Below, one piece after another: positions 1 to 59,350 of a stretch of DNA of 64,000 nucleotides (position 1 is its first letter; the number at the start of each line of letters is the position of its first letter). A model generated the notes under the pieces. The model searched no databases. It worked only from the letters and a program-made list of their open reading frames with translations, and had not been told where the DNA came from. Location of the stretch: assembly GCA_000002435.2 (NCBI GenBank), contig CM018789.1. The stretch is one strand, 5' to 3'. Origin of the DNA: Giardia intestinalis. Taxonomy: Eukaryota. The position numbers were made by a program, and so were the translations under genes.

Positions 1-667
1 TCAGAATAGTAAGCTCGTAGACGATGACCCCGAGGCTCCACACATCGGAGGCAGGGCTGGTCTCGTTGTGGAGGAGCACCTCGGGGGCCATGTACGGCCT
101 TGTTATCGCGGTGATGCTCCCGCCTCTCAGGGCGTTCCTGCAGAGGCCGAGACCAGCGATGACGAAGTACTCACCATCTGCGCTGATAAATATATTGGCA
201 GGCCTGAGGTCGCGGTGGACGAGCCCCCTAGTACCTATCCCACTGAGGCCGTAGAGATAGGCGAGGGCGGCAGCGACCTGCCTCAGGACGGAGAGAATCA
301 CAGCGATAGGGACGGGGATCTTCCTTCGCTTGTGTTCAGTGAGGAGGCACTCGAGAGTCTTGTCGTGGCGGTCCGTGACGACGTAGATGAAGTCATCATC
401 CTCGACCACTTGATGGTGCTTGAGGACCCCCGGATGGGAGAGGTCGAGAAGGGTGGCCAGCTCTAGTCTGATGGTGTCCAGATCCCCCTTGTCCAGGCCG
501 TCGAGCAGGACCTCCTTTACGGCGAGGCCCAGATAATCCTTGAGAGAGTAGACTGTTCCCGCGGGACTTTCATTAAGCACGTCATTCAGTTGCTTGTAGA
601 GCCCTCTGAGAGTGAACGGTGGGACACTGAAAGCTATTGTTGCGGATCCAGACGAAGCAGCGTGCAT
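1..667 (-). CDS. NEK-family serine/threonine protein kinase, 3' end cut off by the window edge. It is a predicted pseudokinase because GLG replaces the DFG motif.
   Basis: ATG at 667..665 follows ACCAAAATAATAAAACCAGG, and an in-frame TAG lies just upstream. The minus-strand translation reads MHAASSGS...LAVKEVLL...HRDLRPANIFISADGEYFVIAGLGLCRNALRGGSITAITRPYMAPEVLLHNETSPASDVWSLGVIVYEL. The VAIK-like Lys, HRD loop, APE and the DxWSLG motif are present. The frame is open to position 1. Confidence 0.75.
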   Translation of the reverse strand, partial: MHAASSGSATIAFSVPPFTLRGLYKQLNDVLNESPAGTVYSLKDYLGLAVKEVLLDGLDKGDLDTIRLELATLLDLSHPGVLKHHQVVEDDDFIYVVTDRHDKTLECLLTEHKRRKIPVPIAVILSVLRQVAAALAYLYGLSGIGTRGLVHRDLRPANIFISADGEYFVIAGLGLCRNALRGGSITAITRPYMAPEVLLHNETSPASDVWSLGVIVYELTIL

Positions 668-973
668 CCTGGTTTTATTATTTTGGTAATCTACAGTTTT
701 GGAAACGATCCGTTTCCACAGGAGTTTATGTCTACAGATCTGTAGTGGTCCAATACTTGCGGAGGGCTTCTGCATCAGGAGCGAGAAGGCCACCTGTGCG
801 ACCGTTTCACCCACCGGTGTCCTAGCGCTGACCGAGGGTGAGAAGGTCTGTTCCCCCTGGCCTCTGCGGAAACGGGTGGCTGTGTGACCCACTAACAGCC
901 ACCACTTCATTAGGGTGTCTGTTTGCTGCACAGCTTGAGGGGAATCCGATCTATCATCAAATGCAACCAACAG

Positions 974-1642
974 TTAGGCGCGTTCACTCACGGGCTTTCT
1001 GGGCGGCATCCGTAGACAGGGCTCCTCCAGTCCAACGCCTTCACTCTTGAGAAGAGACACCACTTTGGAATGACCGTTCATATCAGCTACGCAAAGAGCA
1101 GACCTGCTGCTTATGTACTTCTCCTTCTCCAACAGCAATTTGACACACTCCAAACAACCAAAGTATGCTGCAATTGTGAGGGCAGTCCAGCCCCTGTCCC
1201 TCTCCATGCAGCCCTCAGCATCCAGGAGTAGCCTCACAACCTCGATACGCTCGTTGGCTGTCGCCCACATGAGGGCCGTGTACTCATTGTTACTCCTCAT
1301 GCAACGCTCGTGCTTCATCAGCAGCTTCACCGCCTCAACGTGTCCGAGCACCGCGGCGACCATCATGGCTGTCCCCTCGTATATCTCTACCATCCCTGCC
1401 CTGACAAGCTTCGCCACCATCCTTGCCTGCTGAGGAATGTAGCGCTTCACTGCATCCACGTCGTTTCGCTTGGCCGCCTTCATGAGGTCGGTGACGCCAT
1501 CCTCATCCTCACCAATTGCTCGCGGAGGCCTAGCGGGGCTGTTCTCGCCCACATCCTCCTCATCTGTGTCCTTCTCAGACATGAGGGGCGGGGTGTCGTC
1601 GTGCTCCTGAGAGCAGTGATCTGAATCATCTGTAGACGACAT
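974..1642 (-). CDS. Ankyrin-repeat protein (Giardia protein 21.1-like)
   Basis: Repeated ...TALMWA..G..E.V..LL... units match the ankyrin consensus (EYTALMWATANERIEVVRLLLDAEG, GWTALTIAAYFGCLECVKLLLEK, GTAMMVAAVLGHVEAVKLLM). The maximal ORF is 974..1714. The preferred start is the ATG at 1642 because GGAATAAAAATG lies directly upstream, whereas the 1714 ATG has no AT-rich context. Confidence 0.7.
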   Translation of the reverse strand: MSSTDDSDHCSQEHDDTPPLMSEKDTDEEDVGENSPARPPRAIGEDEDGVTDLMKAAKRNDVDAVKRYIPQQARMVAKLVRAGMVEIYEGTAMMVAAVLGHVEAVKLLMKHERCMRSNNEYTALMWATANERIEVVRLLLDAEGCMERDRGWTALTIAAYFGCLECVKLLLEKEKYISSRSALCVADMNGHSKVVSLLKSEGVGLEEPCLRMPPRKPVSERA

Positions 1643-2418
1643 TTTTATTCCATGGTCACAAAGGAAACGCGTGCACTGGTAAACTTGCGATTCACGGTAT
1701 TGTTTACAGATCATCCAGATAGCGCACCAAACACAGATTGTACGCCCTGGATCCCCTCTGCCCTTCTTGCCTTGTGTGGTAAGTGAACAGTAAGGGTGGC
1801 CTCGGCCATGATGTCAGGAACGCTGTGAGCAGAAGAATTTACTCTGTTTCATCGAAGTTTGTTTTTCAGCTGCCGTTCGAGCAACTCCATCCATGCGGGC
1901 CATCATGCTGGGCGGGTTTCTTGTTCATTCACCCATTCGAGATTCAAACTTCGCAAGTCAGATTATCATCCACTTCTGACGGAAGAAGAACTTTATGCCT
2001 CCCTCCAAGGTGATAATGAATGCACCGGAGAATCTGCAGCTGGCAGTGGATGCGCCAGTCACCCACCAGCCAAACCGAACTGGTCGAGATAGACTCACCA
2101 CGCGACCCCTACGGATCCCTCGGAGGGCAGGCCTGCCCTGTGGACGCCTGGCTCGGGCAGAAGCGGACCGAGCTCCTGGCTACGCAGGACAGCGGCGGTC
2201 GGGAGTCCACCACAAGCAGCTGCGCGGTGCTTGACACCTCGACGTGAGACGTGGCATCACAGCAGGCTGCCGAGCGGGACGGCCCGTGGTGGGCAACGCA
2301 TCATACACGAACAGTGCCCTGACCGCCCCGATGCTCCCGGACATGCCCCTCGAAGAGCTGTGGCCGGGCCAGCCTCTCCAGCTGAACGACCCATGGCTCC
2401 ACGTACACTCTGCGGCAC

Positions 2419-2681
2419 GGATGGGTGCAGACCACACCAGCCGAGCCGGCACACTGCACAGGGTGTGTGCCTGCGAGTGTGTACTGGCTGCTGACCATCT
2501 GGCACCACAGGTGCACTACGGTTCATGAGCAGAAGGGCGGGCCGGGCATCTCCTCCGCGCCAACCAAGGGTCGACATGGGGGTCCATGGACACATGCTAC
2601 AGTCCAGGAGGACACATGGCGAGCGCACCCCGACAGCAGGACCGATGGTCCACTCCACGAGGAGGCGAGGAGGAACCCGAG
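2419..2681 (+). repeat. Copy 1 of a dispersed roughly 260-bp GC-rich repeat. It lies inside a 1.3-kb GC-rich gene-free island (about 1715-3059).
   Basis: Shares blocks with 57203..57466 in the same order: cac(a/g)ctgcacagggtg; catga(g/a)cagaagg..ggcc; ctacagtccaggaggacacatggcgagcgcacccc versus ctatgactccaggatagaggcatacggggagcgcaccctcc; and gatggtccactccacgaggaggcgaggaggaacccgag versus gatggtgccctccacgaagagacgaagaggcaccccgag. Only short ORFs overlap it, in all six frames. Confidence 0.6.
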
Positions 2682-3059
2682 TCGACACTTGAGGCTATGA
2701 CACGTACGATCTTCGTTATGGAGCGCCAACACAACAAGGTGACCTTGGGCTACATGGCCAAGATCGTTGCCACAACTGACGGTAGGCCCCCTGGGGCTGG
2801 CCATAGAGGGGGAAGTCCTTAGAAGGCACTGCAGGAAACCTGCAACACCTCCCAAGAGAGATGAACATAAAGTTCTTCCCCTCCCGCCGGAATCCAAGAG
2901 CATCAAATTTTCGGGTTCTGGATTTCAGACAGATGGACAAGCAGGAGACCCGCTTGGTGAAGCGGCCCGCACAAGGAGATTTACTCAGACAATAGCTAGC
3001 AAACTAACCTTGACAATTACTTGTAAACTAGGCCATGAACCTGTGCGACTATGTAAATT

Positions 3060-3464
3060 TTATTGACCTCCGAAGAGTTCTATAATTGCAGTACGGGTCT
3101 GCTTGAAAGTATCCTGCATAGACATCAGAGCTTGTGTTTCAAACCTTGCGCTTTCTAATTCCGCGTTTTGCAGAGATAGCTTTAGAAGGTTAACGCCGGC
3201 AGAGTGAGCAGCTGAGACGTCCTGGGCAGCGATACTCATTGACAGACTAAGAGCAAGCTTCCGCTTAGCTTCTGCTTCCGCTGACACGTCTTCGAGCTGT
3301 GTGTGGATGTAAGAAGATGCTTGGTCAAACTCTCCGAGAGCCTCCTGATATTCTGAAGCAATCGCGACAATATCCTCAGCAGCCTTTCTGTGAGCCACGT
3401 GCAGGATGCGCACGCGCTGATCGTCGTCAAACATAATGCAGCCATCAGAAGCCGATTCTGTCAT
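3060..3464 (-). CDS. Hypothetical protein (134 aa, predicted coiled coil)
   Basis: ATG-initiated ORF in a Giardia-like compact context. The translation has no recognisable family motifs. Confidence 0.45.
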   Translation of the reverse strand: MTESASDGCIMFDDDQRVRILHVAHRKAAEDIVAIASEYQEALGEFDQASSYIHTQLEDVSAEAEAKRKLALSLSMSIAAQDVSAAHSAGVNLLKLSLQNAELESARFETQALMSMQDTFKQTRTAIIELFGGQ

Positions 3465-20553: not shown

Positions 20554-23052
20554 TCATATCAGGGACTGGCGGTAGTCGTAGGACTCGCCCCGCATGAGCG
20601 ATGTGTACTTCGCCCCGCGCTTGGGCCGGCCGCCCCTCCTGAAGACGAACCACCAGACGAGGAAGCCGGCGACGGCCAGGACGAGGAGGACGACGATGAC
20701 GATGGCGGCGATTGCTCCCCCGCCGAGCCCGCCCCGCCGGTAGTAGCCGGGGTCGAGGCAGTTGACGCTCCCGCCGCCCTTGTCGGTCAGCTCGCAGGTC
20801 GTGCACCCCGCGAGGCCCACCCAGCCGTCCATGCCCCCGGTGTCGCTGCAGCCCATGCACGCCGTGTGGTAGACGTCCGGGGAGATGGGGACGGCGTTCT
20901 CCGCGCAGCTCTCGCACTTGAGCCCCGTCGCGCAGACCCGGCAGTTCGCGATGTCGCACGGCTGGCACTCCCCGAGGTCCTCGTCGGGGTACGTCGAGCC
21001 GCCGCAGCTGGCGCAGTCCTTCGTGCACGCCGCCGTCCGCGGGCAGAGGTACGCGCCGGCCGTGCAGTGCTCGCATCTATTGGGGTCGTCGGCCACGCAC
21101 AGAGCGCACAGCTCCACGGTGCATGTGGGCGGGGGCGCCTCGCAGACGGTCTTGCCCTGGTCCGTCTCCTTGAGATACCCGTCCTTGCACTTCTGGCAGA
21201 CGACGTTCTTGGCTCCCCCGTCCCCCACGGTGCTGCGGCAGACGATGCAGTGCTGGACGCCTACATAACCGTTTCCATCGGAGTCACACTTCACGCACTG
21301 CCCAGGCTGCCCTCTTCTCTCAGTCGCGATGTAGTATCCGAAGAGACACGTCGTGCAACCCGTGCTGCTGCCGTCATTACACGTTGAGCACCCGGCGGCG
21401 CACGGCCTGCACGCCCCCGTCGAGGAGTCGCTGCCGGACACCTCGAGGTAGTACCCGTCTGCGCACCGGGAGCACGAGGTCCCGTCTACACAGGAGAGGC
21501 AGTTCTCCGCGCAGCGCGCACAGGCCCCGCTGGCGTTGTAGTAGCCCGGGCCCAGCGCCAGGCAGCTCCCGAAGCACTTCGTCTTGTCCTCCTTCATGAT
21601 GAGAGGCTCGAAACAGGCGTCGCACGTCGTGGCAGAGTCCTTCAAGCACGCCTGGCAGCCCTGGACGGCACACCCTTCGGGCGTTGCGGGCGGGAGGGCC
21701 CGGGGGCACGCGCCATCCTCGCCGGGCTCCGTCGAGTCCGAACACCTGGTGCACACAACCTTGGCGGGGTCATCACTGGCGAGCGAGCAGCCCCCACAGT
21801 TGGCCACTCCCCCCACCGTGTCGTCCCAGCAGGCGAGGCACTTGGATGACTGGCCATCTGCAGTGATGGTTATCACACTCGAGGAGTCCGAGGACGCACA
21901 TGTAGTGCAGACCCCACCGACCACTGCGGAGCAGATCGACTTCCCGATGGGGTGGGTGATGTCGTAGCAGCCGCCGTAGAACAGGAAGAACTCGGGGGTA
22001 CCGTCTGCGGTCTGCTTGGTGCTGCAGGCCGTGCACGACCCGCCGCTGCACGTGTGTCCGTCGGTCCCGTCCGAGCTCTGGCCGATGCAGACGCCGTTCA
22101 GGGGGTAGTGGTCGGGCTGGGCGCACCTCTTGCAGAGCACCCGGCCGTTGACGTAGATCTGGTCCTCGGCCGCGCAGATGGCCTGGGCGAGGGGGCCGTC
22201 GACGGAGTAGCAGCTCCCGTAGAAGAGCATGAAGCCGGAGGAGCACGCGTCGCAGAGCCCGTTGCCCCGGGGGTCGGAGCACCCGGCGAGCGCGGCCAGG
22301 GCGGAATAGTTGGAGAGGCACCGGCCGTCGACGGGCACGTAGCCTATTTTGCACTGCGTGCAGAGGGTGGGCTTCGAATCTGCGCTCGTGAGCACGTTCA
22401 TCCGGCAGCGCTCGCAGAAGAGGGTCCCGTCCAGCCCGTAGCACGCGAGGCAGGAGGTGGCAGACGAGCTCGCACTGGGGTTCCTGAGGAACTTCGACCC
22501 GCAAGAGCCGCAGACAGAGCCAGTGGTGTCAGATTGATTAGGACACACAATGCTGCCGGGAGAACTATCAAACTTGTAGCACGACCCGTAGTGGAGGAAG
22601 TAGCCGTTGCCACATGTCGTGCACACGCCCTTACTGCATGTGTTCCCCGCAGCACTCCCAGCCGGCACGCACACCCCGTCGATCGGGACGTCGCCCTCGA
22701 TGGCGCATGCCCCGCAGTACATCCCCTCCTCGACGATGTGCTTCTCCTTGCATATGGCGTTGATCAGGGATGCCGTGCGGTAGCACCCGCCCCTGTAGAA
22801 GAGGAAGTCCCGGATGCAGCCCGAGCAGGAGCCCGGAGTGGGGTTGCTGCCCGTGGGCACTATGCATATGCTCCGCGAGAGGCTCAGCAGCCTGCAGTCT
22901 CCGTTGACGGGGACCCGCGCTCCGTCGCACTTGGAGCAGTACTTCTTGCCGCCGATCGTGACGTTGCAGACGCCGGTCGCACCCCCGCAGTCGCTGTCCT
23001 GGGTGCACTCTGAGAAAATACCGTGCAGAAGAAGAAGGATGAGAGCCCTCAT
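20554..23052 (-). CDS. High-cysteine membrane protein (HCMP; VSP-like but not CRGKA-tailed)
   Basis: Signal peptide MRALILLLLHGIFSEC. The 832-aa protein carries dozens of CxxC/CxC motifs (GGCY, CTxC, CxxCxxGY). It has a single C-terminal transmembrane segment, AIAAIVIVVLLVLAVAGFLVWWFVF. The cytoplasmic tail is longer and basic, RRGGRPKRGAKYTSLMRGESYDYRQSLI. The ATG at 23052 is preceded by ACATTAAAAACTTGTATCC. AGTAAAC lies 3 nt after the stop. Confidence 0.85.
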   Translation of the reverse strand: MRALILLLLHGIFSECTQDSDCGGATGVCNVTIGGKKYCSKCDGARVPVNGDCRLLSLSRSICIVPTGSNPTPGSCSGCIRDFLFYRGGCYRTASLINAICKEKHIVEEGMYCGACAIEGDVPIDGVCVPAGSAAGNTCSKGVCTTCGNGYFLHYGSCYKFDSSPGSIVCPNQSDTTGSVCGSCGSKFLRNPSASSSATSCLACYGLDGTLFCERCRMNVLTSADSKPTLCTQCKIGYVPVDGRCLSNYSALAALAGCSDPRGNGLCDACSSGFMLFYGSCYSVDGPLAQAICAAEDQIYVNGRVLCKRCAQPDHYPLNGVCIGQSSDGTDGHTCSGGSCTACSTKQTADGTPEFFLFYGGCYDITHPIGKSICSAVVGGVCTTCASSDSSSVITITADGQSSKCLACWDDTVGGVANCGGCSLASDDPAKVVCTRCSDSTEPGEDGACPRALPPATPEGCAVQGCQACLKDSATTCDACFEPLIMKEDKTKCFGSCLALGPGYYNASGACARCAENCLSCVDGTSCSRCADGYYLEVSGSDSSTGACRPCAAGCSTCNDGSSTGCTTCLFGYYIATERRGQPGQCVKCDSDGNGYVGVQHCIVCRSTVGDGGAKNVVCQKCKDGYLKETDQGKTVCEAPPPTCTVELCALCVADDPNRCEHCTAGAYLCPRTAACTKDCASCGGSTYPDEDLGECQPCDIANCRVCATGLKCESCAENAVPISPDVYHTACMGCSDTGGMDGWVGLAGCTTCELTDKGGGSVNCLDPGYYRRGGLGGGAIAAIVIVVLLVLAVAGFLVWWFVFRRGGRPKRGAKYTSLMRGESYDYRQSLI

Positions 23053-24982
23053 GTGAATCCCTGAGGATACAAGTTTTTAATGTGTCCGGATCAGCAAGGA
23101 TCCGCCACACTACCTCTGCTGTGGAGGCTCCCGGACGCCCAACCTCCGCATGGTCGAACGGCGGCCCCGGAGTCGGCACGGAGCAATCCTCGGAGGGCGA
23201 GTCGAGCCCTGTCCCTCGGGGCTGCACAGGTCCTGCCACTCCGTGTGCCGGTCTTTTGCAGAGGCCAGCCGAGCGGACCGAGTGGGCGGCGCCTGCACGC
23301 AACGGCCGGGCGGCGGGTCCGAGCCACCCGGTGCAGGGACCGCCCATGCTGCGCCGGCCTCCCACGGCTGCAGGCGTGGCTCGGCGCCTATGCTACGCAG
23401 TCGAGCACCCGATGCTTCGGCAGGCCGGGGAGCGCCATCGAGCGACGCGCTATTTTAAATCCACGGCCGAGCTGTCCACTGCTCTGCACATCAGGCATTG
23501 CCTCCGGGGGTTCCGGGCCAGAGCGGGTCTGTTGCAGTGGGAGGGGCAGCACTGAGCGCTCCGACGCACCCGTGCCAACTGATAGGGGCCGTCGGGGGAT
23601 CCAAAAGTGCATTACGTCCAGAGTGCAGATTGACGGGACAGCCGGGCCTGGTTCGTCTCCGTCTTCACACAAGAGCGGGGAGGTGGGTTTACTCGTGAGA
23701 CCCTTGGACCGCGGCTGCAGGGGGCTCAGTACTAGAGCGCTAGAAATAGCTGGCTGTCGAAGTAAATCGTCGCTTTCCGGGGATGACATCTTCCTCGACC
23801 AGGGCAGCAGAAGAGACCCTCAATGCATCTGCCGGTGTTGGGGTGCATCCTACCCGTCAGCGGCGCTTCATGGCTCCACCGGAAAGCCCGATCGTCCGCT
23901 TCTTGCTGTGCTCAGAGGACAGAGAACTAGGCAGGCGTAATCCCATCCGCCCACCGGAGGGCTATGAGTGCCCCCCTCGTCCCATCGAGCAGCACCAGGC
24001 GCAGAAGAGGTCTGCCGGAAATGCGCCAGATGCAGTCAACGCTTTTCTGGGTGTAGTGTTAACAGAATCACACGCTACGACGCGTCCCAGACAGGCTCCA
24101 CCTGGCAGCGGCGCCCCAGAGACGGGCCCCGGGGGACAAAGTATCTCCGGCTCTGCCCCTGCTCCAATGCGAGCGGCCCGCGGACAGAGCCAGGGACGGG
24201 GGCCAGTGCTCGGCCTGCTGCTGGTGCGGTAGCGCCGGGAGACCACCGGACCATCGACTCGGCCGCGGCAACCGGCGGAGCGCCCTGGGCTGCTGCTGTG
24301 TCCACACGCCTGGAGTGCACCGCAACAGCCCGGGATGGGTCCGCAGACAGGCGTGCCGCCCCAGCCGTCCCGGGGGCCGGCTCCTCGTGGCGGGCGGTCC
24401 TGCTCCCTTTGACTTTTCAAATGGAGAACGCAGTTATGGATCCTAGCCCTGCTGCAGAAGGTGCCTTATGAGACGCAGCACAGTCACACCAAGCAGTATT
24501 GGGGCTGAACACTCCTTGGGACGGGCTCCTGACGCATCTGAGAGACGCTCGTTGCTGTGCACTGCCTCTCGGGCCTTGGATGCATGTTGTGCAGAGCTGC
24601 AGGGGTCGCCCTTGCAGTTGTCGGTGGGCCGTTGATGGGGCCATTGAAAGCTCTGGACCGCTACTGGGCCGTGCTGTCCCAGTGCACGTGTGGCAGCTTT
24701 GGCTCGCACTGGATGGTCCGCAGAGATTGCAACGGAGCCACGAGGTGCACTAGTATGACATCCACATTGAGACAGTCGCAGTTCTATTCGGCTCAATCCA
24801 CCTCCTTCTGGCCCTGTGCCGAGATTGCAGATTGCAGAGTAGTGTTCGCGATAGACCCGGTGAGTGTTGATTCCATCAGCGCCTGTGGTCAACGTGTGTC
24901 CGAAGGATCAATCAACTGCATCAATCGACGTGGATTGACTGATGTACCGCGAGTATGTTCCTACCAATCTATCAATCGGGCA
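23053..24982. other. 1.9-kb GC-rich, gene-free spacer between the divergent HCMP and VSP genes
   Basis: The segment appears to be roughly 65-70% GC by inspection (not computed). It has only short, mutually overlapping ORFs in all six frames, with Arg/Pro/Ala/Gly-rich translations typical of non-coding GC-rich DNA. AT-rich initiators occur only at its two ends. Confidence 0.5.
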
Positions 24983-27181
24983 ATGTTTGGCAGTTTTGTT
25001 CTCGCGGGGGTACTCGTCCAGATTGCATGGGCAGAAAAAGTAGCAGAGCGCGCGGCTCAATGCGCAGATAACACTAATTGCGCAGCAGAAGCATGCAACG
25101 TTCTGATTGATGGTAAATTGTATTGCTCTAAATGCAAGACAGAGCTCGTTGGTCACGCTCCTGTCAACGGGGTATGCGCAGATGTGTCGTCAAGCAAGGA
25201 AATATGTAAAATAAACGCAGAAGGAAAATGTACTGAATGCGCTGGGCAATCCTTCATGTACAAAGGCGGCTGCTACCAAACGAGTCAAGCACCTGGCAGT
25301 AGCATGTGTCAAGCGGCAGATGCTGGTAAATGCACGACAGCTCCCGAATCGAAGGCTTACTTTGTAGTTCCAGAAGTAGATAGGAAGCCAACCGGACAGA
25401 CCGTTGTTTCGTGCGGAGACGCGACGGGCGTGACGCTTGCTGACAAGACGTACAAAGGCGTGGATGGGTGCACGAAGTGCGAGGCACCTGCGCCAGCCGA
25501 TGCCAGCGGGGCTAAGGCGGCGACGTGTACTGCGTGCCAGGCGGATAAGTATCTGAAGACAACTACGGACTCAGCCACCTCCTGCGTAACAGAAAAAGAG
25601 TGCACGGATGCCGCAGGCTTCTTCGTCGATACAACGGGCGGTAAAAAATGCAGCAAGTGCGATCCTGGTTGCAAGACCTGTAAGACCGAGGCTGCGAAGT
25701 GCACCTCTTGCAAGGACGACAAGCCGTACCTGAAGAAGGATGCCGGTGACACTGGCACGTGCGTCACTGAAGCTGATTGCAAGAATGGAAACACCCACTA
25801 CGCCGACGACACTGAGCCGAAGACGTGCAAGACGTGCGCCGAGGGGACCTCCGACGGGTGTGCGACGTGCGAGAAGAGCGCCGATGGAGCAGTCGCCTGC
25901 AAGACGTGCGGAAACCAGAAGAAGGTCCAGCCAAACAAGAAGGGGTGCATAGCAAAGTGCCCGGAGACGGTGAGTGCCGAGAAGGATGGCGTTTGTGAGT
26001 GCGTTGAGGGCTACGTTCCCGACAACGCGGGCACCGGGTGCACGAAGAAATCCGACCCCCAGTGCAACACCCCCGGCTGCAAGACGTGCAGTGAGCCGAA
26101 GACAAGCAAGGAGGTGTGCACAGAGTGCGAAGACGCTAAGGCCCTCACGCCCACGGGCCAGTGCATCGATAACTGCGGAGATCTGGGAGGCTACTACGCG
26201 GGCACCAACGAGGGGGGCAAGAAGGCCTGCAAGAAGTGCGAGGTCGAGAACTGCCTCCTGTGCAATGGGCAGGGACAGTGCGAGACCTGCAAGGACGGGT
26301 ACTACAAGAGCGGAGCCGCCTGTGCCAAGTGCGATACCTCGTGTAAGACGTGCGCGAACGGGAACTCCAACGGGTGCACGAGCTGCGAGTCTAGCAAGGC
26401 CCTCAGCTACGAAGGAGAGGGCACGGGGACGTGCAAACCAGGATGCGAGCCAAATGCTAACAACTGCGAGAAGTGCGAGCTGACAGTCGATGGCACGGCC
26501 TACTGCTCCAAGTGCAAGGACGCCAGCCAGTTCCCGCAGAACGGAGTCTGCTCGGCGGCGGCCGGAAAGGCTATTACGTGCACTACTCAAAGAGATGGTG
26601 TCTGCAACAAATGCGCCAACGGATTCCTTCGTATGAACGGGGGCTGCTATGAGACGACCAAGTTCCCCGGAAAGAGCGTCTGCAAAGAGGTACTGCAGAA
26701 TGGGGATACCTGTCAGACTCTGGCCGACGGATACAAGCTGGATAACGGTGCGCTCACCACTTGCTCGGCCGGATGTAAAACGTGCACTAGTAACACCGTG
26801 TGTACTGAATGCATGTATGGGTATGCAAAGACTAATAATGAGTGCAAAGTATGCACCACTGGCTGTGCTACGTGTGCAGGATCCACCTCAAATTGCGACA
26901 TTTGCAGCACTGGGTACTACAAATCTGGGAGTACCTGTGTGTCTTGCACAGCAAATACCGCTGATGGCACCATCACCGGCGTCGCCAACTGCGCCAACTG
27001 CGCTCCTCCACTTAACGATAAAGGGTCTGTCCTCTGCTACCTCGTACAGAGTGGCGAGAACACCAACAAGAGCGGTCTCAGCGCGGGCGCTATCGCGGGT
27101 ATCTCCGTCGCAGTCATCATTGTTGTCGGCGGTCTTGTTGGGTTCCTCTGCTGGTGGTTTATGTGCAGAGGCAAGGCGTAG
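24983..27181 (+). CDS. Variant-specific surface protein (VSP)
   Basis: Signal peptide MFGSFVLAGVLVQIAWA. The roughly 730-aa protein is saturated with CxxC motifs and GGCY/GYYK motifs. It has a C-terminal transmembrane segment, and the invariant VSP tail ...GFLCWWFMCRGKA ends at the stop. AGTAAAT lies 9 nt after the stop. The listed ORF start at 24557 is GTG and reflects only the absence of a stop in GC-rich upstream sequence. Confidence 0.9.
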   Translation: MFGSFVLAGVLVQIAWAEKVAERAAQCADNTNCAAEACNVLIDGKLYCSKCKTELVGHAPVNGVCADVSSSKEICKINAEGKCTECAGQSFMYKGGCYQTSQAPGSSMCQAADAGKCTTAPESKAYFVVPEVDRKPTGQTVVSCGDATGVTLADKTYKGVDGCTKCEAPAPADASGAKAATCTACQADKYLKTTTDSATSCVTEKECTDAAGFFVDTTGGKKCSKCDPGCKTCKTEAAKCTSCKDDKPYLKKDAGDTGTCVTEADCKNGNTHYADDTEPKTCKTCAEGTSDGCATCEKSADGAVACKTCGNQKKVQPNKKGCIAKCPETVSAEKDGVCECVEGYVPDNAGTGCTKKSDPQCNTPGCKTCSEPKTSKEVCTECEDAKALTPTGQCIDNCGDLGGYYAGTNEGGKKACKKCEVENCLLCNGQGQCETCKDGYYKSGAACAKCDTSCKTCANGNSNGCTSCESSKALSYEGEGTGTCKPGCEPNANNCEKCELTVDGTAYCSKCKDASQFPQNGVCSAAAGKAITCTTQRDGVCNKCANGFLRMNGGCYETTKFPGKSVCKEVLQNGDTCQTLADGYKLDNGALTTCSAGCKTCTSNTVCTECMYGYAKTNNECKVCTTGCATCAGSTSNCDICSTGYYKSGSTCVSCTANTADGTITGVANCANCAPPLNDKGSVLCYLVQSGENTNKSGLSAGAIAGISVAVIIVVGGLVGFLCWWFMCRGKA

Positions 27182-51612: not shown

Positions 51613-52050
51613 TCGATGGACGGAGAGCGGGGAGGAGGCGCTCAAGTAAGCTTGAGTAAAGGACTGTGCGGGCCCGGATTGAGGATGGACGGGATCCGCT
51701 CCCCACCTATGACCCTGGATGTAGGCCTGTGCACGCTCGCAAGCGCCAGCGGGCAGCTGCACCGGCCACGCGTTTAGAAAAGGACTATAGGGGCGGTGAT
51801 TAGGCTGCGTGGCGCAGCCGTGCCTTCCGCTCCGCCTGTGTCCTGGGGATTGCTCAGTGCCCCGGATCCTCACCACGAGTAAACCCGCGGCTCAAAGAAG
51901 CGCATTATCCCAGGAGGTCTAGAAACTGACCTCCATTTTTGTCTTTCGCAAGAAATGGTTTTTAAATAATTTACTATTGGCTAAAGTCCTGCACAACCTA
52001 TTTGCCCATGAGCTTTGGGAATCCCTTACTTTGGTTAATATTCGAGTCCT

Positions 52051-55000
52051 TTAAAACGGCAATAAGTCAAATAGTGCTAGCAAGCGATATTCAGCCCCGG
52101 CAAGCACTCCAAAGTCAATACACACGGACCACCCGTGAATGTTAGCATCGATTGCTCTACTCGATATTCTTGCAATATGCTTGTGGTCTTGAGATTTGGA
52201 GGAGAGCTTTAAGGCTATCTTTTTGTCCACGTATGTAAAAAGATTGTTTGCCTCACTTTCTACCTCAAGCCATGACCGAAAGTAGTTCCGCAAAGAAACT
52301 GGGAGCGTTGACAAAGCTGCTGAAGAGGATATGACCTCTTTTAACTTTGCAATATCATTAGTGATTGCCTGCTCCTTCATGCGTGCCAAGCAGCTTTGCA
52401 GATGTACAGAGGACGTACTTTTTTCACCATGCTTTTGTACTGTGTGCTCGGTTGTTCGAGCTACTGTTCTTTTTAACCTTCTGTTGATTGTTTTGTATGC
52501 AGTGTAGCGCAATTTAACCAGGTCACTTAAGGTTGCATCAGCACCGGTTAAGGCATCTATAAATCTTGACCGAAACTCAGCTATTTCTCGCCGAATAGCA
52601 GGTAGCTCTGTATCTCCACTGGGGAAGTCCTTAATTGTTTGCTCATATGCTTGTTTGAGCTCAGCTGCACGTTTGGCTAATTCGCGTTGACAAAGAGCAG
52701 ACTTAATCGACCTACGCTTTTTCAACACACCGCTTTGAGGCCTTTCAGACTCGGTTATCGAACTAGTGGTTATATTCGAAGCCTTGTTGCAAGCGAAAGG
52801 CAAGGATAGTCCTGGTACGCTTTTTGGCCTAGGAGGAAGGCCAAGCATAGGTGGATGAGGGAGAATGGCGGATTGTTGCTCCTTTATATCGTTTTCGCTA
52901 TGCACAATAGTGCTATTTATATCCTTCTCCTCCTGTTCTTTAACCACAAGGAACTGTGTAGCACGGAACTCATTCTCTGCAGTGAAGACATCGATATTGA
53001 TTGGACGTCTGCAAGCATGCTCTATCCCGGAAACAAATTCATCGTACGCCAATGCTCTTGTCAAACTCGGGTACAGAATGTTCAACTCACACGTGTATTT
53101 CTCTAGGTCGTCACGTGCGCCAATAATACCTCTTTGGATAAGTAGTTGGGACGTATCATATACACCATTGTTTGGTACGGAAGAAGCAGGAGAGGACGCC
53201 GTTTTCCAGGTGCTTTGGTTGGTATCATACATATTGGAGCAGATTGTTTCATCTACTTGCGCAGAAATGCTTTGTATATTATATAACGCATTAGAGCTAT
53301 TTTCTGAGTCTTTGGGGGGATGTGGACACGGCCGCGCAGATGCCGGTGAGGGCAGCTTGTCTACTCGCTTCCTTGTCAGCTTTTGCCGGAGCACCTGTTC
53401 TGCATACTGTGTGAGAGGTGCACCTTTACTATGATCACTGTTTAAAGGAAATCGCCCATATGGCTGTCCGGCTTTGTGCTTGGGCGTGAGGAATCCCGTT
53501 TGCGGCGTACTGGCCTGACCTTCCAGATAGTTGTCGGCTTCTTTGTTAAGGTTGATAGCTATACTATTTCTGCGTGCTCTACTCTTCTGTTCTTGCCGAG
53601 ATGACAGCGCCGCCTGGGAATGGGGGTAGAATATTCCATTGCGGATGTACACCGAAAGGATGTGTTGACACTTTCCAGATGCAGCCAAGAACAACAGCGA
53701 ATGTTTTCTGCACACATATGTGCCACAGACCTCTTTCAACTCTTTAATTTTTTCTTGTGGAAGAAGCGTCATTATGCGGTCTGCCTGTCTAGATGAAACT
53801 GACAATATATCTTGGATTAGATAGTTAGTTAGGCGTGCATATCCAGATCCAACAGATTTTGCGCTTGTTTGACGCAAGTCGAGGGGGAGACTGGGTAGCT
53901 GTAAGTACTGATTCTGCCTTGCTCCATTGCGGCGATCAATCTGACCCACAAAGCTTTCATTTTTTGCCACAATCTGATTAAATTCAGATTTAAACTGCTT
54001 AAGTTGCTTGGTTTTCCCGCCGATCTTGGCCTGGATTGCACGCGACTCGTTTGTGATGGCGTCCAGCAAGTCAGACATCTGTGATAGCTTTGCTTCCAAA
54101 AATGCAGCTACATCATATGCATTACTCATTTGTTCTTCTGTAACAGAGAACTTCACAGGCATCAAAGGCCAATCTCTTATACTATCCTTGTATATCGGAC
54201 ACAGGGCATTAATTCCGTGAGGGCAATACACCCTAAGTTCGCCCAACATTGTCTGCATTTCCTTCATGGCTTCACAGTAGGAGATGAAGTTTTCCTTGGG
54301 AAATTGCTTCTCCTCTATTCCCAATGCACTAAGGTCAGTACTTCTCTTTATTGTCGACCCTTTAAATTGCAACATGCCGATACTCTGCACCTCGCTCAAT
54401 AACTGAAGGATCTGAGGCTTAATAGCCAACGACTTCAGATGCCGTACTTCAATCTGTTTCATCTGTGAGTTCTTCAAATTATTTGTGCATTGACTCGTTG
54501 CTCCTTCCTCTGTGGTTGCCTTGTCAATCCTGTCGAACTCATGTCGTACAATAGAAACCGCAGAGTCGGTTAACTCTATGAACATTTCCTGGAGAGAGGT
54601 ATCGCTGGTATGCTGCACGCTTTCGTTTATGTCGCCTGGTTGTGCACATATAGTACGCCCATCTTCAGAGATAAACGCCTGTTCTACCACTGTTTGGGTT
54701 TCTAGAAAGGATGGAAGAGCCCTGAGCGGCAAGGAGCGCAATAGATTGACAAAGGTAGAAACACACTCAATGAACTCAAATCGATGAACTTGGTCTTGAT
54801 AGTCCATGGACAGTATCTCCTCTTCCACCTCCATAATCTTCTCTTTCAAAAGCATCAATTGCTCCATGTAGGCATACCTCATGCGCGAGATCATTTCTGT
54901 AAATATTTCTGGAAAGATTGATTTATTGTCGAGAAGAAATTCCAGGATTGCCCGTACATTTTCGTCCTCATCACCAACATTTTCTACTAAAAAGTCTCGC

Positions 55001-56598
55001 ACAGCGTCAGAGCTTTCTTTTATCCGTGCGATCCCTTCGTGAACATCTATGACACTCTTCCTTTCCTTGATATTTAACATTATATCCTTGAGATTGTTTG
55101 CAGTTACATACAGCCGTTTGGAGCCGGTTTCCGGCCAATAGGTTGATTTGACCTTTGCACAGTCCAGATTATGGTGCTCTTTTTTAATATCTTGGTTGTC
55201 TATACTTGTTTCAGGATACTGATTGCTTTGTTGTCCTGAGACTAGATATCGTTCCAGTTTGCAAACGGCAGCACTTGCGTCCTCAAGAAGAACAGCTACT
55301 GCGCATCTGCTTTCATTCCATGTCTCGAAAATCATCTCCGCTTCTATAGTTGTCTTAGAACCAATGCTTTGTAATTGATCGAAAAGAGCCCTGTTACCCT
55401 GCTCTATAGCGTCTACAAGATCATCTGAGGAGAGTGTTTGGAAGATAGCGACGGGGAACAACATATCACACTCTGCCTTATGCAGTGCAGAGTAGCTACG
55501 GGCACAGTCGGTGCAGCAGCCAATTGCGCAGCCGCAGCGATGGCAGATAGTGTAGCTTTCCACAGACATCGAACTGCATACAGGACACGCGATGGGTGTC
55601 ACCACATCGCGGCATGCTTTCGTAATGACAGAAATCTGAGCTTGAAGCGGCATGTCAATCCACATAAGAAGATCGTGTCTGAGAGTGTCCAAAAGTAGAC
55701 TGTATGCTTTGATAACAGCATAATGATCTTGTGCATACTCATAGCAGTTATGTGTAGACTGGTTGGGTGGAAGAGGTACACCATAGTCACCAACACCCAT
55801 ACTCGTGAGCTGCTCCTCTGACCAGCCAATTGGCATTCTATTGTCTTTATGCTGTCGCTTAGCCCTCTGTGCTATGGGGAGCCTAGCATTTTGATACGCA
55901 GGAGGTAGTCTAAGACTTTTTAGCTCACCAATCCTAGTATCACATTCCTGTCCAATCTGTTCAAGAATTAAATCTGAGCCTTCCTCATCAGTGTACTCCC
56001 TCTTGGTGCGTGGATCAATGGAGTGCTTAAGGCTCACTGCCAACAGAAGTGAGCGATTGGCAAGAGAGGTGTAAATATTAGTGAGCGCTTTAAACGGACA
56101 AAGTGCGTTTCTGTGTGCTGCTCGATGCTGCAAGGTGCTTTCGTTAACACGACTAGTAACAAGAATATCTGAAATGCTCAAACAGTAAGGATCATCGGCC
56201 AGTTTCCGGGGAAGAATAAAGATTTGAAAAGCTTTGGTCTGAACCATGTTTAGAAGGGATTCGATAGCCATGTCATGCATAACTGTCCTGAATTGATTGC
56301 TATTCAGAAAGGCAACTTCCAACTTAAGTATCACCGGTTGAAAAAGGTCGTTAAATGTCAGTCCACTGGAAAGCAGACATGTTATTTGGGTACTAATTGA
56401 CTTATCTGTTATTCCAATAGCAGGACTGGCTGTGCACTTGATTTTAGGAGTTGCCTCTGTTCTAATTCTAAACGCCACTCCTGACCGTTTAACAGTGGTC
56501 TTGAAAGAGCAGGATATCGTGTTTCTGATTGTCTCAATGGAAAGAAAGCGGCCATATTCGCTGTCAAATACAAATATTACACGCTCATTGTGGAGCAT
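52051..56598 (-). CDS. Hypothetical protein (1,515 aa) with a Cys/His-rich zinc-finger-like cluster
   Basis: ATG-initiated long ORF. The cluster reads CPVCSSMSVESYTICHRCGCAIGCCTDCARSYSALHKAEC. The protein has extensive predicted coiled coil. Confidence 0.6.
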   Translation of the reverse strand: MLHNERVIFVFDSEYGRFLSIETIRNTISCSFKTTVKRSGVAFRIRTEATPKIKCTASPAIGITDKSISTQITCLLSSGLTFNDLFQPVILKLEVAFLNSNQFRTVMHDMAIESLLNMVQTKAFQIFILPRKLADDPYCLSISDILVTSRVNESTLQHRAAHRNALCPFKALTNIYTSLANRSLLLAVSLKHSIDPRTKREYTDEEGSDLILEQIGQECDTRIGELKSLRLPPAYQNARLPIAQRAKRQHKDNRMPIGWSEEQLTSMGVGDYGVPLPPNQSTHNCYEYAQDHYAVIKAYSLLLDTLRHDLLMWIDMPLQAQISVITKACRDVVTPIACPVCSSMSVESYTICHRCGCAIGCCTDCARSYSALHKAECDMLFPVAIFQTLSSDDLVDAIEQGNRALFDQLQSIGSKTTIEAEMIFETWNESRCAVAVLLEDASAAVCKLERYLVSGQQSNQYPETSIDNQDIKKEHHNLDCAKVKSTYWPETGSKRLYVTANNLKDIMLNIKERKSVIDVHEGIARIKESSDAVRDFLVENVGDEDENVRAILEFLLDNKSIFPEIFTEMISRMRYAYMEQLMLLKEKIMEVEEEILSMDYQDQVHRFEFIECVSTFVNLLRSLPLRALPSFLETQTVVEQAFISEDGRTICAQPGDINESVQHTSDTSLQEMFIELTDSAVSIVRHEFDRIDKATTEEGATSQCTNNLKNSQMKQIEVRHLKSLAIKPQILQLLSEVQSIGMLQFKGSTIKRSTDLSALGIEEKQFPKENFISYCEAMKEMQTMLGELRVYCPHGINALCPIYKDSIRDWPLMPVKFSVTEEQMSNAYDVAAFLEAKLSQMSDLLDAITNESRAIQAKIGGKTKQLKQFKSEFNQIVAKNESFVGQIDRRNGARQNQYLQLPSLPLDLRQTSAKSVGSGYARLTNYLIQDILSVSSRQADRIMTLLPQEKIKELKEVCGTYVCRKHSLLFLAASGKCQHILSVYIRNGIFYPHSQAALSSRQEQKSRARRNSIAINLNKEADNYLEGQASTPQTGFLTPKHKAGQPYGRFPLNSDHSKGAPLTQYAEQVLRQKLTRKRVDKLPSPASARPCPHPPKDSENSSNALYNIQSISAQVDETICSNMYDTNQSTWKTASSPASSVPNNGVYDTSQLLIQRGIIGARDDLEKYTCELNILYPSLTRALAYDEFVSGIEHACRRPINIDVFTAENEFRATQFLVVKEQEEKDINSTIVHSENDIKEQQSAILPHPPMLGLPPRPKSVPGLSLPFACNKASNITTSSITESERPQSGVLKKRRSIKSALCQRELAKRAAELKQAYEQTIKDFPSGDTELPAIRREIAEFRSRFIDALTGADATLSDLVKLRYTAYKTINRRLKRTVARTTEHTVQKHGEKSTSSVHLQSCLARMKEQAITNDIAKLKEVISSSAALSTLPVSLRNYFRSWLEVESEANNLFTYVDKKIALKLSSKSQDHKHIARISSRAIDANIHGWSVCIDFGVLAGAEYRLLALFDLLPF

Positions 56599-57202
56599 TC
56601 AGTTTTACTTCCGGAATCTTTACTGCGGTTTGCTACTCTCTTTAGTGAGATACCCGTTTACTCGTCGTTTCACTGGGGTGAGGTTGTCCCCTGCTACCTG
56701 ACCAGGTCCTCCATGCGAGCCACCGCCGCCCTAGGCTGACAACCTCTCGCTCGTTCACTAGCTGAGACCCAGAATCCGAAAGTCGGATGTCGTCCAGTTC
56801 TGACGGGGAAGATTTATGCCCCCTCCCTCGAGGTGATAGCGAATGCAGATGAGCGTTCGAGGCTGGTAATGGCACCAATCACTCGCCCCGCTTGTCGAGA
56901 TGGACCCGCACGTGACCCATGTGAATCCCTCGGCAAGAGATGGGAGCCCTGGGGTGCTTGGCTAACAGAGGCGGATTGATCCTGACCGTACCGAAGAGTG
57001 GTGACCTGGGCCACCTGCCGGGTGTCTGCTGCAGCAACTGGCAGTGCCTGACATCCTTGAGTGGACAGGCGCCGGTTGTAGAGAGACGACCAAGCGGTGA
57101 ACCGGCCCTGATCGCTCCTGGTGCCTCGGATGACGCCTCTTAGAGAGGTGACCCTGGACCGACGCCTCGGTGGACCGACGCATCACCCCAAGTGTGCTGT
57201 GC

Positions 57203-57466
57203 AGATGGACCAGCCCACAGGTCAGCTAAGCCAGACACGCTGCACAGGGTGAGCGTCGATGTGATCTCGTGCTGGGTGACGGAGCACCTCTGCGATCCAT
57301 GAACAGAGGACTGGACCTCTCCCCTGATACCAGCGCATGGGAGTACTCCGCCGGCATCTACGAACGCGTACTATGACTCCAGGATAGAGGCATACGGGGA
57401 GCGCACCCTCCCGGTCATACTCGGGACTGATGGTGCCCTCCACGAAGAGACGAAGAGGCACCCCGA
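57203..57466 (+). repeat. Copy 2 of the dispersed roughly 260-bp GC-rich repeat. It lies inside a 1.25-kb GC-rich gene-free island (56599-57847).
   Basis: See copy 1 (2419..2681). The blocks occur in the same order and orientation, at an estimated 70-80% identity by eye. Only short ORFs overlap it, in several frames. Confidence 0.6.
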
Positions 57467-57847
57467 GGAACGGGGTAGACACCCGGGGTCGTGGCGTGGG
57501 ATCTTCGTCATGGAGCACCAGGGTCCCGGGCCACGTGGAGGCCAGACTGCTGTGACCGACGCAAGGCCCGAGACAGCAAGTGCTCACTAGATGCCAGACA
57601 GTAGCTGATCTCATGGGATCTGAGTGAAGAAGTGAAAGGCCCAAACCAATATCGCGAAGGACAGAATAATGACTTCCAGACCGAGGGAGCAGATACTTCC
57701 CCTTTTCCCCAGAACTACATCATTCAGATCTTGGATTCTGAATGCAATGAACAAGGATACAGTTAAATGTGGTGGCTTGCGGATGAATTTACTGGCGTAA
57801 ATTCCTTGAAAAACCAAATTTAAGATAAAATCCGAAAAATCTCGAGA

Positions 57848-59350
57848 ATGTTTCTAGGATGCAACAAATACGACCCTACCATAAGCCATGAGCTGAACAT
57901 GCGCCGACGAGATGAATCTCAACGGCAATTCTACGAAGCGACCGTCAAAGAGGATTTTAACAATCGCTGTCTAGCAGAGTTTGAACACCGCTCAATTATT
58001 AAGGGCAAGATAGCGTATGTGAATATGCGTATGGCAGACCTTATACAGAAGAACAAAATGGCTATCGAGGGGCGTCGTGCAGCCCTTAAGAAACTTTACG
58101 ACGCAGAATTTCGTGCCTATCAGGATGCTGTAAAGGCCTCTATTCCAACAGAAGAAGATAAAATACGGGCTATGGAAGCAGAATATGCGTCCGTCATTCA
58201 GAGAAATACTGCTGTGAAGAATCAAAGAGTTGACGTGGCTCGCGAGAGGCAATGGGAGATCAATTGTGATGAGCTCCGATCAGCAGCCTCTATGCTAAAT
58301 GCCCGTGCTTGCAAGCTAGCATGGGACGTTGCGAACTGCGAACGTGTGCAGAAGCGCCAGCGTGACCGAGAAGAGAAAGCTGCATGGCAAAAACAGGTGA
58401 ATGACAACCATGCTAATTTCCTCAAGGATGAGGAAAGCAGGATCGCTGGCGAACACGAGCGCATGATGAAGAACAGACAAGAGCTAGAGCAGCAGTTGAC
58501 AGAACGGGAGAGACAGAAGGCAGAGGAAGCGTATCAACGGGCTCTTGAAAATGAGAAGTGGAACGAAAACCGCAGACTTGGGGACGAGATAGACAAGCTT
58601 GAGCGCGAAAAACAGGAGCAGGAGAAGTTCTATAATCAGCAACAGCTCCTAATGCGTATGCACATCGAAAACCTCCAACGTGCGCACAACAAAGAAGTGA
58701 GTAGAAATGATGGAAAAGAGATGATGGCTAAAATAGAGGCCGAGATACGTGAGGAAGCTGAACGAGACCGCAAAAATAAGGAAAACCTTAGAAATGAGCA
58801 ACTCCTCTACTTAGAAATCTTGAGAGCCAGAAAGGAAAAGGCCTTAATGGAATCCAAAGCCAGGGATGACTACTTAATGGGCTTAATGCTCGATGCAGAA
58901 AAGAGACTGTCTCAGCGGGAGCACGACGATTTGCAGCGCCGTAAGCGCATGGCAGAAGATTGTAAGGACTTCAATTATAGCCGCATGAACTCTGGGGCAG
59001 AGGTGAAGGAGGCAGCGAAGCGTGAAAAGGAAGCTGAGCTGGCTGCTGCATTGGCTGACTTGGAGGCCTTTGAAAAAGAAAAGCTGGAAGAGCTAAAGAA
59101 GCAATATGACGAGGCAAAGCGCTTTGAAGAGTTTCTGCTGATGCAGTCAGACGAACACAAACAGCGGATCCAGGCAGAAAAGGATGCAGAAGCTAAATAT
59201 CAACAAAGAAAGAAGGATGAAGCTGCTGCAGACATGCAGAGAATTAATGCAAGACTAGGGTCACTAGAATCAAAGATAAGAGAAGTCAATGAGGTCCAAT
59301 TCTGGGACAATGAACGCCCAAGGCCAAAGAAACAGTGGTACAACGTGTGA
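57848..59350 (+). CDS. Coiled-coil protein with a Glu/Arg/Lys-rich trichohyalin-plectin-homology-like region. It is possibly axonemal (MNS1/CFAP53-like).
   Basis: The 500-aa protein is dominated by ER/K-rich heptad repeat sequence such as ERERQKAEEAYQRALENEKWNENRRLGDEIDKLEREKQEQEKF. The ATG is preceded by AAATTTAAGATAAAATCCGAAAAATCTCGAGA. Confidence 0.5.
   Translation: MFLGCNKYDPTISHELNMRRRDESQRQFYEATVKEDFNNRCLAEFEHRSIIKGKIAYVNMRMADLIQKNKMAIEGRRAALKKLYDAEFRAYQDAVKASIPTEEDKIRAMEAEYASVIQRNTAVKNQRVDVARERQWEINCDELRSAASMLNARACKLAWDVANCERVQKRQRDREEKAAWQKQVNDNHANFLKDEESRIAGEHERMMKNRQELEQQLTERERQKAEEAYQRALENEKWNENRRLGDEIDKLEREKQEQEKFYNQQQLLMRMHIENLQRAHNKEVSRNDGKEMMAKIEAEIREEAERDRKNKENLRNEQLLYLEILRARKEKALMESKARDDYLMGLMLDAEKRLSQREHDDLQRRKRMAEDCKDFNYSRMNSGAEVKEAAKREKEAELAAALADLEAFEKEKLEELKKQYDEAKRFEEFLLMQSDEHKQRIQAEKDAEAKYQQRKKDEAAADMQRINARLGSLESKIREVNEVQFWDNERPRPKKQWYNV

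Follow-up and report, generated by a model that had tools for sequence, protein, structure and literature searches.

Two fast-evolving intergenic islands of Giardia intestinalis are old copies of one non-coding repeat with degenerate inverted ends

Results

Genes and gaps in the window

The stretch of DNA analysed here, referred to as the window, comprises 64,000 nt of contig CM018789.1 of Giardia intestinalis WB; its proteins are identical to WB C6 entries, and a short-read contig of a WB-like isolate is 100% identical to it. It holds two gene-free gaps, island A of 1345 bp and island B of 1249 bp, bordered by the genes given in Table 1; the literature puts the mean intergenic distance of Giardia at 477 bp. 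Genes near the islands have a GC3 of 0.49 and a GC content of 0.44 at four-fold degenerate sites. The loci of DH and of other isolates were fetched by way of the flanking proteins. WB belongs to sub-assemblage A1 and DH to sub-assemblage A2, and over the first 9 kb DH is 96.6% identical to the window.

Several neighbours of the islands have features of their own. The ankyrin-repeat gene beside island A is at least 90% identical to a paralogue on the same chromosome, KAE8301230 (GL50803_112937), which lies about 22 genes upstream and whose locus might hold a further copy of the repeat described below. At the left edge of the window stands an ankyrin/kinase (NEK-type) gene that is 18–24% diverged between WB and DH with few gaps, the next genes being about 0.5% diverged; this pattern points to replacement by a paralogue or to a family member that evolves very fast. 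Further along, two VSP genes are arranged divergently; the ORFs in the spacer between them all lack a Pfam match, and this spacer is unrelated to the element studied here and could represent either a VSP pseudogene or a further island of high GC content. Rfam identifies the box H/ACA snoRNA GlsR18 and the C/D snoRNA GlsR17 (the miR2 precursor) in a head-to-tail overlap, and the 447-bp intergenic region that holds them has diverged by only 1.1% between WB and DH.

Table 1. Features of the window. Positions are those of the whole 64,000-nt stretch; the arms and cores are the parts of the two repeat copies described in the text.
Feature	Position	Strand	Remarks
Ankyrin/kinase (NEK-type) gene	1-1000		left edge of the window
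Ankyrin-repeat gene	974-1714	minus	one border of island A
Copy A, 5' arm (left terminal inverted repeat)	1838-2029	plus	arm HMM E=7e-47; 64% identical to the 5' arm of copy B
Copy A, core	2030-2840	plus	GC 0.64, T 14%; non-palindromic, non-coding; holds the block 2419-2681
Copy A, 3' arm (right terminal inverted repeat)	2841-3027	plus	about 30 nt short of the stop codon of the IFT20-like gene
IFT20-like gene	3060-3464	minus	other border of island A
VSP gene	20554-23052	minus	GC3 0.88
Spacer between the VSP genes	23053-24556		1.5 kb, 65% GC
VSP gene	24557-27181	plus	
Single ORF of 3902 aa	38452-50160	minus	
GlsR18 and GlsR17 snoRNAs	51665-51844	minus	
Gene for a 1515-aa protein	52051-56598	minus	one border of island B
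Copy B, 5' arm	56657-56849	plus	begins 58 nt upstream of the start codon of the 1515-aa gene
Copy B, core	56850-57660	plus	GC 0.61; holds the block 57203-57466; central ~350 nt (~57000-57400) hypervariable among isolates
Copy B, 3' arm	57661-57838	plus	ends ~10-25 nt before the start of the TPH-domain gene
TPH-domain gene	57848-59350	plus	other border of island B

A diverged repeat that nearly fills both islands

A sequence-only reading of the window had pointed to a diverged repeat of about 260 bp shared by the two islands. The blocks it quoted are present at 2419-2681 and 57203-57466, and the minus-strand peptides that it compared, RLLVEWTIGPA and RLFVEGTISPE, are in the sequence and truly similar. 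Pairwise alignment of the two segments (263 and 264 nt) gives a local score of 36, compared to 11.0 +/- 1.7 for 300 dinucleotide shuffles, among which the highest score was 17 (z=15). As had been proposed, the islands belong to a single family of homologous sequences and lack a convincing ORF; the extent of about 260 bp was set too short. Collinear homology on the same strand spans about 1.17 kb, from 1838-3027 in copy A and from 56657-57838 in copy B, fills nearly both intergenic gaps, and has the reported block as its best-kept part.

Smith-Waterman alignment of 1850-3000 with 56650-57850 scores 91, compared to 13.5 +/- 1.7 for shuffled sequence (z=45), and covers 849 columns with an identity of 61% when gaps are counted and 71% when they are not. 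By nhmmer, 1838-3012 pairs with 56657-57822 on the same strand at E=1.4e-46. Standard blastn recovers a single 40-nt piece (2639-2678 with 57424-57463, 82.5% identity), and since it detects this piece alone the copies must be old.

Profiles built from the pair, from the arms and from six sequences found no third copy in the window or in the 24 fetched loci, and one metagenome scan with the most conserved block yielded no further copy. The putative family as known thus comprises two loci and one variant contig (L010), whose core is 89-92% identical to that of copy A, whose 3' arm is only 57% identical, and whose flank is unrelated. A search of the literature turned up no earlier description of such an element in Giardia.

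Inverted arms around a unique core

The sequence-only description had missed both the 1.2-kb extent and the terminal inverted repeats. In each copy, a unique core of about 810 bp is enclosed by arms of about 170-190 bp, the second arm inverted relative to the first, so that the element ends in degenerate terminal inverted repeats. By nhmmer, copy A matches its own reverse strand (E=2e-10) as well as the opposite end of copy B. When the 5' arm is aligned with the reverse complement of the 3' arm, z is 10.7 within copy A and 5.4 within copy B; across the copies, the 5' arm of B with the 3' arm of A gives 10.1, and the 5' arm of A with the 3' arm of B gives 2.8. All four arms, together with the arm of L010, form one aligned family with pairwise identities of 44-64%, inverted partners being 47-54% identical. 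Run over the window, the arm profile matched exactly the four arms (the 3' arm of copy B at 57838-57667, minus strand, E=2e-30).

A palindrome of the whole element was considered and rejected. Inversion is limited to the arms, and neither the cores nor their halves are inverted copies: core A aligns with core B at z=30.6, compared to z=0.8 for core with reverse-complemented core. Base composition differs along the element as well, with 61-64% GC and only 14-17% T in the cores and 40-58% GC in the arms.

The heptamer (A/T)TTTACT occurs near the left end and ~35-50 nt inside the right end of both copies (1838-1844, 2977-2983 (ATTTACT), 56657-56663 and 57787-57793). Read on the minus strand as AGTAAA(T/A), it resembles the Giardia polyadenylation signal, and the heptamer at 2977 may serve the IFT20-like mRNA.

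Coding potential and RNA structure

Are the islands remnants of a protein-coding gene, as the sequence-only reading had offered as one explanation, or of a fast-evolving orphan gene on the minus strand? We regard an orphan gene, or a pseudogene of one, as very improbable, in spite of the peptide similarity and of minus-strand ORFs of 242 aa (DH), 177 aa (DH, locus B), 230 aa (L018) and 159 aa (L010). Such ORFs are expected, because the T-poor, A-rich plus strand depletes stops on the minus strand; in core B, the three minus-strand frames contain 5, 2 and 6 stops and the plus-strand frames 9, 13 and 11. The WB frame is broken at both loci. Translated similarity between copies A and B is weak and spread over both strands and several frames (best E 2e-5 on the minus and 1e-4 on the plus strand). 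Codon periodicity is absent: substitutions between WB and DH fall 13/15/20 on the three phases of the DH 242-aa ORF, compared to 12/5/3 in the flanking genes, and allelic indels of 1, 2, 5, 7, 11 and 71 nt, next to others of 3, 18 and 30 nt, are mostly not multiples of three. Pfam matched no family in six frames of both copies at E<=1, transposase and reverse transcriptase remnants included, nor in the ORFs called in DH and L018. When the element-A ORFs (the DH 242-aa ORF and the window ORF 2257-2688) were searched against 5.8 and 1.8 billion proteins, the only matches were same-locus ORFs of other isolates and that of L010. The pseudogene explanation therefore fails for want of codon phase, in-frame indels, a Pfam domain or outside protein relatives. 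Two particular genes were also considered as the source and rejected: the element shows no tblastn or nhmmer similarity to the two VSP genes of the window, and no protein or DNA similarity to the MYST acetyltransferase gene described below.

A conserved non-coding RNA had been the other proposal. In their GC-richness the islands are like other structural RNAs of Giardia, such as the snoRNA region at 51.6-51.9 kb. The cores nonetheless evolve 4-6 times faster than four-fold degenerate sites and carry large indels, and Rfam matched neither copy even at E<=1. Across the window, Rfam at gathering and permissive thresholds found only the two snoRNAs elsewhere and one chance match, and a tRNA scan found no tRNA. 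Folding of 300-nt core windows is close to that of shuffled sequence, with z mostly from +0.8 to -1.6 and a few windows reaching -2 to -3. Nor did a look at structural covariation between the copies, which the same reading had suggested, bear the proposal out: the RNAalifold consensus of five sequences, effectively two lineages, has an energy of -191 kcal/mol, about 40% of that of the single-sequence folds (about -458 to -475 kcal/mol), with a covariation term of only -6.3. These results largely refute a conserved structured RNA family, to which we give next to no credence.

Could the arms act together in a transcript? A non-coding unit that makes dsRNA would fold as a panhandle, its arms forming a long imperfect stem for Giardia Dicer to process into endo-siRNAs, or would serve as a sterile transcript. 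The arms are indeed complementary as RNA beyond chance (cofolding against shuffled partners gives z=-4.2 to -6.9), the MFE fold of each copy brings the 5' arm together with the 3' arm, and the minus-strand AGTAAAT, presumably a polyadenylation signal, stands near the left end and just inside the right end. Yet the most stable of the four arm pairs is a non-cognate one, the 5' arm of B with the 3' arm of A, and the former pairs better there than with its own 3' arm. Because of this the complementarity looks inherited and not maintained; the lack of cognate preference, and hence of arm co-evolution, fits similarity by descent and not selection for pairing. The low identity of partner arms and an element that outpaces silent sites also count against the dsRNA unit, and we judge it unlikely, even though three subtypes of endo-siRNA from defined genomic regions have been reported for WB (Liao et al. 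2014, as cited in PMC11080815). The old WB annotation, in which a link to published siRNA gene-ID lists was sought, has no ORF inside either island. Homology and an inverted-repeat architecture are thus found together with an absence of coding or structural-RNA constraint.

Divergence and mosaic alleles

The two islands are the fastest-evolving DNA in the window. At locus A, WB and DH differ at 1.16% of the four-fold sites of flanking genes and at 6.9% of core positions; at locus B the values are 4.15% and 16.6%, with a further 78 window bases opposite gaps. The excess is confined to the element and begins and ends at its borders. A divergence of 4-6 times that of silent sites, together with the mosaics described below, is beyond what neutrality alone predicts.

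Differences between WB and DH at locus A are clustered, with 18 in 2292-2353 and none in the adjoining stretches of 106 and 130 nt; 12 changes of the WB lineage fall in the same interval. With L010 as the third lineage, polarised changes comprise 28 from GC to AT and 16 from AT to GC, which argues against ongoing GC-biased conversion. The GC-rich core is drifting toward AT, with a bias close to that predicted for neutral decay toward the local composition of four-fold sites.

At locus B, the A2 isolate DH and the metagenome scaffold L018, also A2, are 99.98% identical over the flanking 4.5-kb gene and identical over most of the element. In its central ~350 nt they are separated by 39 mismatches and 91 gap columns, and nowhere else in the element. 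Some A-type states have been kept by DH and lost in both WB and L018. At locus A, contig L003, which over 6.2 kb has 5 mismatches to DH, carries DH-like states in one part of the element and WB-like states in the next, the switch taking place within ~20 nt. Evolution of the islands is therefore not only very fast but mosaic. In many isolates, Logan short-read contigs break off within the elements or at their borders (2615-2691, 56786, 57075, 57517 and 57846), which fits heterozygosity or repeats and also mundane causes.

The two loci in other assemblages

Where assemblage A has copy A, P15 (assemblage E) and a second non-A lineage have a gene for a MYST acetyltransferase of 420 aa, which follows the IFT20-like gene. 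The GC content of this MYST gene is 41-44%, it has no similarity to the element, and the genes beyond it also differ. Assemblages E and B carry at this place the MYST histone acetyltransferase gene (loci L005, 6427-7689, and L006, 6417-7682) and a 580-aa ankyrin gene; assemblage A has, at the same break (~3030-3060), element A and the 246-aa ankyrin gene. Gene order in E and B thus departs from that of A immediately beyond the IFT20-like gene, which places copy A against a synteny breakpoint.

In another assemblage, the DNA upstream of the TPH gene is non-coding for at least 504 nt and is GC-rich at its distal end, where the contig stops. This DNA can be aligned to copy B only over the last ~70 nt beside the gene, and it gave no alignment with the family profile; an element that changes at this pace would leave no recognisable orthologues between assemblages. 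It could represent an island that is positionally conserved, which would be unexpected of junk. None of the fetched loci offers a clean empty site: locus A is rearranged in B and E, and the contig of the other assemblage breaks off at locus B.

Discussion

Where do the islands come from? They are old, diverged copies of one dispersed non-coding repeat of ~1.2 kb, and we favour, at about even confidence, the view that they are relics of a dead mobile element. The source would have been an element of a non-autonomous TIR type or an internally deleted relative of the dead retrotransposon family of Giardia, and its two copies would have arisen by transposition and not by another kind of duplication. 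Exchange between alleles or with unseen paralogous copies, and/or a locally raised mutation rate, may account for the excess divergence and the allele mosaics, and the element may have helped bring about the rearrangement of assemblage A at its right edge. Today the copies most likely have no sequence-specific role and would be tolerated spacers in an otherwise compact genome. No target-site duplication is recognisable at either copy: the flanks AGAAGAA and CTAGGCC (A), and GATACCCG and ATAAAATC (B), do not match, the ends being fuzzy by ~40 nt, so that decay is possible.

Might the islands instead owe their persistence to their position? They could be a chromosomal feature that was never mobile, such as a hotspot of recombination or gene conversion or a GC-rich hypermutable island, its copies stemming from an old local duplication. 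The mosaic of DH and L018 in the centre of copy B, the abrupt switch of L003 in copy A and the clustered changes of the WB lineage are what such a feature would produce, although local errors are possible in the DH (454) and metagenome assemblies. The contigs of many isolates that end in or at the islands point the same way but have mundane causes too. Position itself argues for it, with copy A at a synteny break and, in another assemblage, GC-rich non-coding DNA in the equivalent position ahead of the TPH gene. Ongoing GC-biased conversion would, however, push substitutions toward GC, and they run toward AT; moreover, terminal inverted repeats around a collinear core are left unexplained. On balance we consider a purely positional origin improbable. 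Somewhat less doubtful, and still a minority view, is a bolder version of the mobile-element reading, namely that Giardia has here its first recognised elements of the TIR type (DNA-transposon-like or foldback), which would at the same time be hypervariable islands that turn over by exchange between alleles or paralogues.

If the favoured reading of a dead mobile element is right, to which known elements might the relics belong? Genie 2/GilD is a dead family of non-LTR retrotransposons, with copies of ~3 kb that retain reverse-transcriptase coding remnants. All degenerate Genie 2 copies in Giardia are said to carry inverted repeats of up to 172 bp, and the dead GilD family is reportedly riddled with internal deletions. 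Judged by these descriptions, the element is possibly related to Genie 2/GilD. Both occur in Giardia as degenerate, non-functional copies with internal deletions at chromosome-internal sites, and the reported inverted repeats of up to ~172 bp compare with the ~170-190 bp seen here and in L010. Unlike Genie 2/GilD, however, the present element measures 1.2 kb and gives no reverse transcriptase signal in any frame, and its two copies are only ~56% identical to each other. We have not filed it as Genie 2 because reverse transcriptase remnants are absent.

TIR DNA transposons and foldback (MITE-like) elements share with it the terminal inverted repeats around a non-coding core, the short length, the intergenic and dispersed location, and the association with a rearrangement breakpoint. 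They differ in that no target-site duplication, autonomous partner or transposase was found here, and in that the inverted repeats are unusually long and degenerate. To our knowledge, no DNA transposon has been reported in Giardia. The primer sites of Genie-1 and Girep-1 are absent from both elements. Like the transcribed intergenic repeat Girep-1 and the endo-siRNA generating regions (eSGRs; Liao et al. 2014), the islands are non-coding repeats in ORF-dense regions of Giardia with a potential to form dsRNA; unlike Girep-1, in which units of 222 nt with complementarity to VSP genes are repeated in tandem (Chen et al. 2007, PMC1950533), the element is not tandem and has no VSP similarity.

The compact Giardia genome is reported to contain only three retrotransposon families and no transposase-related sequences. 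The element probably represents a dead repeat family that had escaped annotation and whose evolution is unusually fast and mosaic, and an additional unannotated family flanked by inverted repeats would refine the mobile-element inventory of this organism. If the islands are dead elements and no more, they amount to ordinary junk and serve mainly as a warning not to annotate the ORFs of 150-240 aa that gene callers predict there. If fast mosaic evolution holds genome-wide, such islands would be useful high-resolution typing markers, natural places to seek recombination or allelic heterozygosity, and candidate causes of the rearrangements between assemblages. And should the TIR-type reading with allele or paralogue exchange prove true, they would bear the direct traces of recombination in a parasite that is supposed to be nearly clonal, and would mark synteny breakpoints between its assemblages.
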